Source of the DNA: a virus
Length of the DNA: 19,872 nt
Strand: one strand, 5' to 3'
UHGV virus genome: UHGV-0107401
Below are positions 11,632-12,261 of this stretch, piece by piece. The first letter of the stretch is position 1. Every line of letters begins with the position of its first letter. The notes beneath the pieces were generated by a model. The model had not been told where the DNA came from. It ran no database searches and saw only the letters and a list, made by a program, of their open reading frames with translations. A program made the position numbers and the translations under genes.

Positions 11632-12261
11632 TCAGTCCTTAATGAACTCTTCCGTGTGAATGCCGATTTCACCAGTAAGCAGCTGAGCACTGGTTGCGTC
11701 GATGCTCACTGATGTATGAGGGTTGGCGTTTTCGTTAAGCCATTTGATTACCGGCTTCACGACGTCTTCGAAGGAGGAGCTGCGAGCCTTATTAACGTCG
11801 GATACGTGGTAGTTTTGGCACCAGTTCCAGCACGCGCGATATTCATAATCGACCGCCTCGTCATGCAACAGACAAAGCTGGTTAGGATTGATAATGTCAG
11901 GAATAAAAGGTGAGTAACCTTCCCCAATGGCCTGCTTGATATATTCAATCATGGCTTCGCGTGAGGGCGGCTTAGTCTGCTCTTCCTGAGTCCCGTCAGT
12001 TTCATCATCATATTCAAACACCGGGAAGCAACGCACACTGTCAACGAGGTGGTCACGAAAGATACGGGTTTCCAGCGAATCGGGCGCTGTAAACAACTCA
12101 ATATTTACTCCGGAACCGAGGTTAATTTTCGGTTTATCTTTCGAGTACCCCTCAAACAACAGGCTTTCGACCAGATTGTGGGCGTTGATAATGCCGGGAA
12201 GCTTGCCGGAAGGCTGAAAAAGCTGCAGAAGCTGAACTTTCCAATACTTGATAACTTTCAT
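11632..12261 (-). CDS. Hypothetical protein (209 aa), accessory/moron gene between lysis cassette and terminase
   Basis: Track ORF 11632..12321 trimmed to ATG at 12259-12261 (MKVIKYWKVQLLQLFQ...) with AGGA about 9 nt upstream. Acidic, Cys/Trp-containing (CWNWC), no predicted TM segment. Bracketed by a terminator upstream and terS downstream. No family recognised. Confidence 0.6.
   Translation of the reverse strand: MKVIKYWKVQLLQLFQPSGKLPGIINAHNLVESLLFEGYSKDKPKINLGSGVNIELFTAPDSLETRIFRDHLVDSVRCFPVFEYDDETDGTQEEQTKPPSREAMIEYIKQAIGEGYSPFIPDIINPNQLCLLHDEAVDYEYRACWNWCQNYHVSDVNKARSSSFEDVVKPVIKWLNENANPHTSVSIDATSAQLLTGEIGIHTEEFIKD

Follow-up and report, generated by a model that had tools for sequence, protein, structure and literature searches.

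The gene and its neighbours in the late region

The analysed stretch of DNA, hereafter the window (19,872 nucleotides of the virus genome UHGV-0107401), carries on its minus strand a gene coding for a 209-aa protein at positions 11632-12261, with the ATG at 12261 and the stop codon, included in these coordinates, at 11632-11634. An identical gene is present in E. coli 88COLEC, where RefSeq lists its product as the hypothetical protein WP_109555165.1. As a whole, the window is almost identical to the 88COLEC prophage from about position 200 to 15,400 and diverges past that point.

All the neighbours of the gene lie on the same minus strand and form a lambdoid late region. The Q antiterminator (14358-13858) is found upstream of the lysis genes, followed by the holin (13555-13250, annotated by RefSeq at that position), the M15 endolysin (13263-12865) and the i-spanin Rz (12413-12868; PF03245, E = 2e-37; phrog_13, E = 7e-52), which is the immediate upstream neighbour. 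The o-spanin Rz1 (12466-12657), a 63-aa ORF with the lipobox ASVGC, is embedded in Rz in another frame. Downstream, the small terminase gene terS (10830-11570; phrog_370, E = 7e-84) starts 61 nt past the stop codon of the 209-aa gene, and is followed by terL (10826-9495). An initial annotation, made from the sequence alone, had placed a 209-aa gene between Rz/Rz1 and the terminase, and the ORF, Rz, Rz1 and terS were all found where it had put them. Directly after terL comes a 473-aa portal protein (8062-9483). RefSeq/PGAP names the latter "anti-CBASS protein Acb1 family protein", which looks like an annotation artefact, since both the position after terL and the Phage_portal_3 domain that Pfam detects in its relatives point to a portal.

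The GC content of the gene is 47.9% (56% at third codon positions, GC3), vs. 53.6-58.0% (GC3 of 63-77%) for the endolysin, Rz, terS, terL and portal genes, in agreement with the lower value suspected by the initial annotation. Concerning the opposite strand, only two ORFs, of 65 and 75 aa, overlap positions 11632-12412; both are antisense within the gene, and no partner gene was found there.

The 209-aa protein matches the uncharacterised phage family phrog_16206 with an E-value of 1.2e-59, residues 1-209 being aligned to profile positions 3-137 and the middle module appearing as an insertion. Full-length relatives number 289, mostly in Klebsiella prophages; all of them are unnamed and their indels are in-frame only. 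Pairwise dN/dS between the gene and five distinct alleles ranges from 0.26 to 0.34, at dS values of 0.24 to 0.79. At the level of sequence comparison, a dN/dS of about 0.3 and hundreds of homologues thus show the gene to be genuine and under purifying selection. A literature search on the PHROG identifiers returned no paper.

Boundaries and occupants of the slot between the spanins and terS

The slot starts with an intrinsic terminator (12387-12411, minus strand), whose terminator-like hairpin begins one base past the Rz stop codon and comprises eight pairs, six of them G-C, closed by a loop of 4 nt; the stem (12411-12392) is followed by TTTTT. The terminator noted right after Rz in the initial annotation was thus recovered. 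It forms the 5' boundary of a cargo cassette and moves with it: it is found behind different spanins and ahead of different cargo, and is missing when the slot is empty.

Between the terminator and the ATG lies a structured 130-nt 5' leader (12262-12386, minus strand), with a long hairpin at 12279-12346 and a Shine-Dalgarno sequence, AAGGA, at 12269-12273. The predicted folding energy of the leader RNA is -60 kcal/mol (z = -4.7 vs. shuffled sequences), and the Shine-Dalgarno sequence is paired in the predicted minimum-energy structure. On the coding strand from terminator to ATG, a consensus scan found no sigma-70-like promoter even at 8 of 12 matches, a scan that could miss a weak or non-sigma-70 promoter; a search of Rfam with positions 11400-12600 returned no family. 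The leader is about 89-100% conserved ahead of unrelated cargo genes. Terminator and leader together (12262-12411, minus strand) constitute a portable 5' flank, also present in loci L029, L033, L041, L045, L049 and L051. In Klebsiella phage GZ7 and three IMG/VR contigs, what follows this pair is a gene for a multi-pass membrane protein of 142 aa, and elsewhere one for a 153-aa protein and an AlpA-like HTH gene.

At the 3' side, the slot is bounded by a conserved stem-loop (11590-11625, minus strand), located just before the terS ribosome-binding site and framed by the invariant flanks ATTACAG and CGATAATG. It was found in seven genera (E. coli, Klebsiella, Salmonella, Raoultella, Kosakonia, Scandinavium and Pectobacterium), and among 12 variants compensatory changes occur at 6 of its 13 pairs. 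It belongs to the terS side, since it is kept whether the slot is full or empty. It has no U tract, and the 209-aa gene has no downstream terminator of its own. The stem-loop may serve terS as an element of RNA processing or of translation control, or else be a linker for recombination. When the aligned loci are compared, insertion is seen to take place at a precise point, with the spanin stop codon on one side and this pre-terS stem-loop on the other.

In Salmonella, the start codon of a 134-aa homologue overlaps the spanin stop. In Kosakonia, Pectobacterium and Scandinavium prophages, the same slot holds Rha, an N4 Gp49/Sf6 gene 66 protein or a KilA-N protein; Rha is also the cargo of the slot in P22. 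As for some Klebsiella prophages (L006, 5631-6622; L010, 5871-6195), a 47-aa ORF (phrog_20573) comes next after the stem-loop instead of terS. In L006, this ORF is followed by a 211-aa putative metallopeptidase (PF18894) and then by a DUF2280-type terS, a layout from which it follows that the junction can carry several cargo units in series.

The presence or absence of the gene among related prophages, a comparison that the initial annotation had proposed, varies between close relatives, as expected of the variable hotspot that it had postulated at this position. The 5' end of terS was matched in 109 E. coli genomes, only about a dozen of which carry the gene. E. coli strains WI2 and cS100a share the same portal protein (WP_040087961.1) and have closely related terS genes of equal length; the slot of WI2 contains a 198-aa allele, while that of cS100a is empty, the Rz1 stop codon directly abutting the terS leader and stem-loop. 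L003 and L024 have an empty slot, unlike the window, L002 and others, where it is filled. A 61-aa gene, corresponding to the C-terminal domain only, takes this place in Klebsiella prophages that have the same terS. Among 87 IMG/VR contigs with the same stem-loop, 16 carry the family, about 30 are empty, with the spanin abutting the stem-loop, and the rest have other cargo. A scan of genome contigs with terS returned only five loci.

Some copies of the gene are frameshifted, and in one case an AlpA-like HTH gene has taken its place, with just the last codons (EEFIKD*) remaining. Furthermore, the gene is combined with at least four lysis cassettes on its upstream side and with three terS families downstream. 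Taken across these genomes, the comparison shows the gene to be dispensable for the phage. Because close relatives are devoid of it, it does not qualify as a packaging or morphogenesis accessory of all related phages, the finding that the initial annotation had named as fatal to its own reading.

Domain architecture and the C-terminal domain family

The protein has a pI of 4.85, with 32 acidic vs. 19 basic residues. Its maximum Kyte-Doolittle value over a 19-residue window is 0.69, from which no membrane segment is expected; the acidic, cytoplasmic-looking character first attributed to it was thereby borne out. A first AF2 model, built from 32 close relatives, was poor (pLDDT of 56), whereas the model based on a deep alignment of 125 sequences, including domain-only relatives, reached a pLDDT of 84. 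In this model, five strands make up an initial beta domain; a disordered linker leads to helices between residues 101 and 178, and a helix and hairpin form the C-terminal part. Judged from alignments and this prediction, the architecture of the protein is shown to be that of a soluble, acidic mosaic of four parts.

The N-domain (residues 1-83; 12013-12261, minus strand) contains the five predicted beta strands and the motif KYWxVxLF..EGYSKDKP..IELFTAPDSLET..TPVYE, with a pLDDT of 91-95 except in the loop of residues 16-30. Its profile collects 52 proteins, and the domain is also found joined to other C-terminal partners. Weak Foldseek matches of this domain to Hfq/Sm-like folds (probability of at most 0.25) were insignificant, and such a fold was not retained. 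The domain is followed by an acidic disordered linker (residues 84-99, YDDETDGTQEEQTKPP; 11965-12012, minus strand; pI of 4.05), with a pLDDT below 50 at residues 92-95; it is there that relatives carry in-frame insertions.

The middle helical module (residues 100-152; 11806-11964, minus strand) is predicted by AF2 to form helices at residues 101-113 and 126-131 and from 134 onward. It is missing from the proteins of 130-158 aa that combine only the N- and C-domains (phrog_16206); since this is the common minimal architecture, the middle module of the window protein is an insertion. Relatives may have an optional Cys/His-rich insert after this module, and an HDHAC-x2-C...C-x3-C knuckle is among the modules added in frame. 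The CWNWC motif, pointed out in the initial annotation, is present within the middle module at residues 144-148 (11818-11832, minus strand), but its pair of cysteines is not conserved: close relatives all keep C144 and W147, whereas many of them have Y or R in place of C148, and distant relatives display CWQWY, AWDWY or AWEFY. A redox or metal motif was ruled out, the second cysteine not being conserved.

The C-domain (residues 157-209; 11635-11793, minus strand) is the core of the family, running from SFEDVVKPVIKWLNENANPH to TEEFIKD-COOH (phrog_4621, E = 2e-7; pLDDT of 84-96). It is predicted to be a helix and a beta hairpin ending in [ED][FY][ILV][KR]D-COOH. The window protein is a member of this C-terminal KWLNEN-NPH domain family (phrog_4621-like), which has no Pfam entry, and possesses all the columns that are near-invariant in 125 sequences, namely F164, P170, W174, L175, N178, P181, H182, A192 and the terminal D. 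A HicA-like (alpha-beta-beta-beta) domain was discarded, as no such fold match appeared.

No named family was recognised in the protein, neither in the initial annotation nor in the searches of Pfam, NCBIfam and PADLOC, and none of the PADLOC-DB 2.0 defence models matched it at E-values up to 1. Neither the protein nor the profiles of its N- and C-domains matched any PDB sequence below E = 0.2, and Foldseek with the pLDDT 84 model gave no PDB match below E = 1; the remote-homology and Foldseek checks that had been suggested thus yielded no informative family and no significant PDB fold. Against BFVD, Foldseek retrieved only small uncharacterised phage proteins, matching the C-domain. No catalytic signature was found in the protein.

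An exhaustive profile search gave 444 clusters at 50% identity, most of the matches sharing the C-domain only. The C-domain profile itself collects at least 838 proteins, none of which has a Pfam domain or an informative name. In keeping with the match to phrog_16206 over both ends of the protein, the profiles of the N- and C-domains retrieve the same proteins. The domain forms the extreme C-terminus of 120 of 140 representatives and is often the entire protein (51-65 aa). Searches of Pfam and NCBIfam with 70 C-domain sequences gave scattered chance matches only, and those of Pfam and PHROG with nine N-/C-domain fusion proteins and an 82-aa Salmonella protein, P0278, returned only families of unknown function, as are all the PHROGs of the other N-terminal partners. 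Both the C- and the N-modules are shuffled with other phage modules of this kind.

The gene precedes terS, immediately or nearly so, in the lambdoid prophages of Klebsiella, E. coli and Salmonella. In Serratia and Cedecea prophages, stand-alone C-domain genes of 53-54 aa are part of the pL operon, with N on one side and cIII/kil/gam/recT on the other. In metagenomic phages, one such gene comes after DnaB and others are among small unannotated genes. Pantoea phage PdC23, for which no integrase is annotated, carries a C-domain gene as the first one after an 800-nt gap, upstream of terS at a distance of about 2.7 kb. C-domain genes are also present in about 200 virulent Vibrio phage genomes, among the small genes between terL, portal and head genes. 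Only two plasmid records contain the domain. Its presence in virulent Vibrio phages and in early pL operons points to a function in the lytic cycle rather than in lysogenic conversion; as a whole, the distribution fits a small protein of lytic growth, and neither a lysogenic-conversion factor nor a dedicated packaging component.

The gene of P0278, in a podovirus-like Salmonella prophage (L013, 5001-5249), lies on the strand opposite to terL and portal. The protein is composed of a Cys/His knuckle and a C-domain, its gene is preceded by an 850-nt stretch without any called gene, and it is very common in Salmonella, being indexed in 607 blocks of the collection. To judge from its layout, it is the family's best candidate for expression in the prophage. 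In Vibrio phage 115E34-1 (L057; 4187-5236 and 6607-7407), clusters of very small genes lie opposite to terL, portal and a head-morphogenesis gene, and one of these genes codes for a 51-aa C-domain protein; the layout resembles the accessory or anti-defence islets within structural modules. Since the P0278 and 115E34-1 genes are opposite to structural genes, independent transcription is possible for both, and for Salmonella possibly in the lysogen.

Comparison with known systems and possible functions

The gene is an accessory cargo of the lysis-packaging junction, and as such belongs to a known sort of gene. By position and orientation, the closest known case is atiEcA of phi80, without homology. 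In phi80, Rz/Rz1 and a terminator are followed by rha, taiEcA (a defence gene on the opposite strand), atiEcA (a late-oriented antidote gene), two more ORFs and cos (PMC11364771). The product of taiEcA (orf63) acts in defence by tail assembly inhibition (PMC11364771). Counter-defence is the function of atiEcA (orf64), which has the late orientation; for its homologue AtiSalB, binding to the cognate TaiSalB has been demonstrated (He et al. 2024, PMC11364771).

The 209-aa gene shares with atiEcA the slot after Rz/Rz1 and a terminator and before the packaging genes, the orientation of the late operon and the status of dispensable accessory; both products are also proposed to bind another protein, such binding having been shown for AtiSalB/TaiSalB. 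They differ in that AtiEcA has 76 aa and is paired with a divergent defence gene, whereas the 209-aa gene has no opposite-strand partner. The protein has no sequence or profile similarity to AtiEcA (hhalign probability below 1%; 0.1-0.4% for Tai/Ati), none to TaiEcA (BLASTP E = 0.22; hhalign probability of 0.1%) and none to the phi80 orf66 product. Also, tai is a lysogen-expressed gene whose direction is opposite to that of the late operon, whereas the gene studied here is on the late strand. A location upstream of the packaging module is common to Tai/Ati and to this gene.

The Bor protein of lambda is a lipoprotein encoded on the opposite strand from its own promoter. Like bor and the classic morons of HK97 and lambda, the gene is an extra and variable one between lysis and packaging, with a base composition that departs from its flanks. 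Unlike Bor, however, its product has no signal peptide or lipobox (no hydrophobic N-terminus); the gene is on the late strand, no promoter was found for it, and its terminator is upstream rather than downstream. The moron assignment of the initial annotation is therefore not sustained in the strict sense: of the features of a moron, the gene is an extra gene of deviant base composition, but it is co-oriented with the late operon, its terminator is placed 5' of it with none downstream, and no promoter-like site was found. The defence or virulence role that had been suggested fares no better, since the searches of PADLOC and for enzymatic, membrane or secretion features were all negative. Neither a Bor-type lipoprotein nor a PADLOC defence protein, the gene product is no essential packaging factor either.

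Rha (as in phi80), N4 Gp49/Sf6 gene 66 and KilA-N proteins share with the 209-aa protein an identical position, from the spanin stop to the pre-terS stem-loop, but they are unrelated families whose Pfam models miss it. As for the proteins of the lambda pL operon (Ral, CIII, Kil and Gam), they are likewise small and soluble, and the C-domain genes of 53-54 aa in Serratia and Cedecea sit among them; there is no homology, however, and the gene of the window is longer, multi-module and located in the late operon.

We give about an even chance to the reading in which the gene is a non-essential, Q-dependent late-operon cargo, coding for a soluble, modular, protein-binding inhibitor or adaptor that takes part in phage-host or phage-phage conflict. 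The gene would then occupy the variable slot of a lambdoid prophage's Q-dependent late operon as a cassette of terminator, 130-nt structured leader and ORF, and would be transcribed only together with the late genes, through Q-antiterminated read-through of the terminator. Its product would bind another protein, inhibiting or adapting a factor of the host or of a rival phage, with the C-domain as the common binding unit and the N-terminal modules (five-strand domain, linker and helical module) as add-ons that might give specificity. We infer the timing of expression only from the orientation, the upstream terminator and the failure to find a promoter, and the mechanism of binding or inhibition only from the size, charge and modularity of the protein, the Ral-, Kil- or Gam-type neighbours of the C-domain and the phi80 Ati precedent.

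A further-reaching version, which we regard as tentative and rather doubtful, would make the C-domain a large unnamed family of phage inhibitors acting in counter-defence or host take-over. It would be used alone in early regions or in virulent phages and in fused form late, have a fold absent from solved structures, and make the 209-aa protein a late counter-defence or self-immunity factor, whose task might be, for example, to hide late structural or packaging proteins from the sensors that recognise them.

An unlikely alternative, and the one originally favoured, is a moron expressed in the lysogen for host defence or superinfection exclusion. The slot does hold a defence gene elsewhere, taiEcA of phi80, as well as multi-pass membrane proteins of the type common in exclusion (Klebsiella phage GZ7, RothC and several IMG/VR contigs); the GC content below that of the flanks would also agree with it, and the Salmonella C-domain gene opposite to terL and portal looks like an independent unit. 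The window itself speaks for a late gene, with the late-operon strand, the upstream terminator and a leader without promoter-like site, and the protein has neither a PADLOC match nor any membrane, nuclease, NTPase or other effector feature that could be found. Moreover, the C-domain occurs in virulent phages and early pL operons, where a lysogen defence makes little sense.

The same occurrence in early operons, far from packaging genes, weakens the idea, to which we give still less credit, that the gene codes for a late accessory of DNA packaging (a terminase or portal helper) or of lysis timing. Its place in lambdoid prophages, nearly always next to packaging genes and last before terS or before a short extra gene set, would suit such a role, as would the C-domain genes near terL or portal in phages of Kosakonia and Vibrio, in Zobellviridae and in a Salmonella prophage; yet close relatives with the same terS, terL and portal do without the gene, which combines freely with any of the three terS families and with four or more lysis cassettes, and the same leader stands ahead of unrelated cargo. 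That the ORF is a selfish or decaying filler, hitch-hiking between conserved recombination linkers and functionless for phage and host, seems very improbable. Frameshifted and truncated copies, the replaced copy of which only the last codons are left and the many relatives with an empty slot would be expected of a filler, but not a dN/dS of about 0.3 over dS values of 0.24-0.79, the conservation of the C-domain across bacterial orders and phage types, or the well-folded domains that AF2 predicts once the alignment is deep.

At present, the gene is another uncharacterised accessory gene of the ordinary phage dark matter common among phage genomes, from which two leads are worth following, namely a C-terminal mini-domain of very wide occurrence and a slot with clean boundaries. 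Should the C-domain turn out to act as an inhibitor module, more than 800 phage proteins now called "hypothetical" would receive a family name, and a class of late-operon counter-defence genes would join the one known example in this slot, phi80 Ati. The slot itself, bounded by a portable terminator-plus-leader and a covarying stem-loop, offers a defined place to mine conflict genes in Klebsiella, E. coli and Salmonella prophages.

Elsewhere in the window, a 590-aa ORF is found at 17481-19253 on the plus strand, opposite to the phage genes, in DNA of about 33% GC. It lies past the position of about 15.4 kb where the match to the E. coli 88COLEC prophage ends, and it looks like foreign cargo at or near the early region of the prophage.
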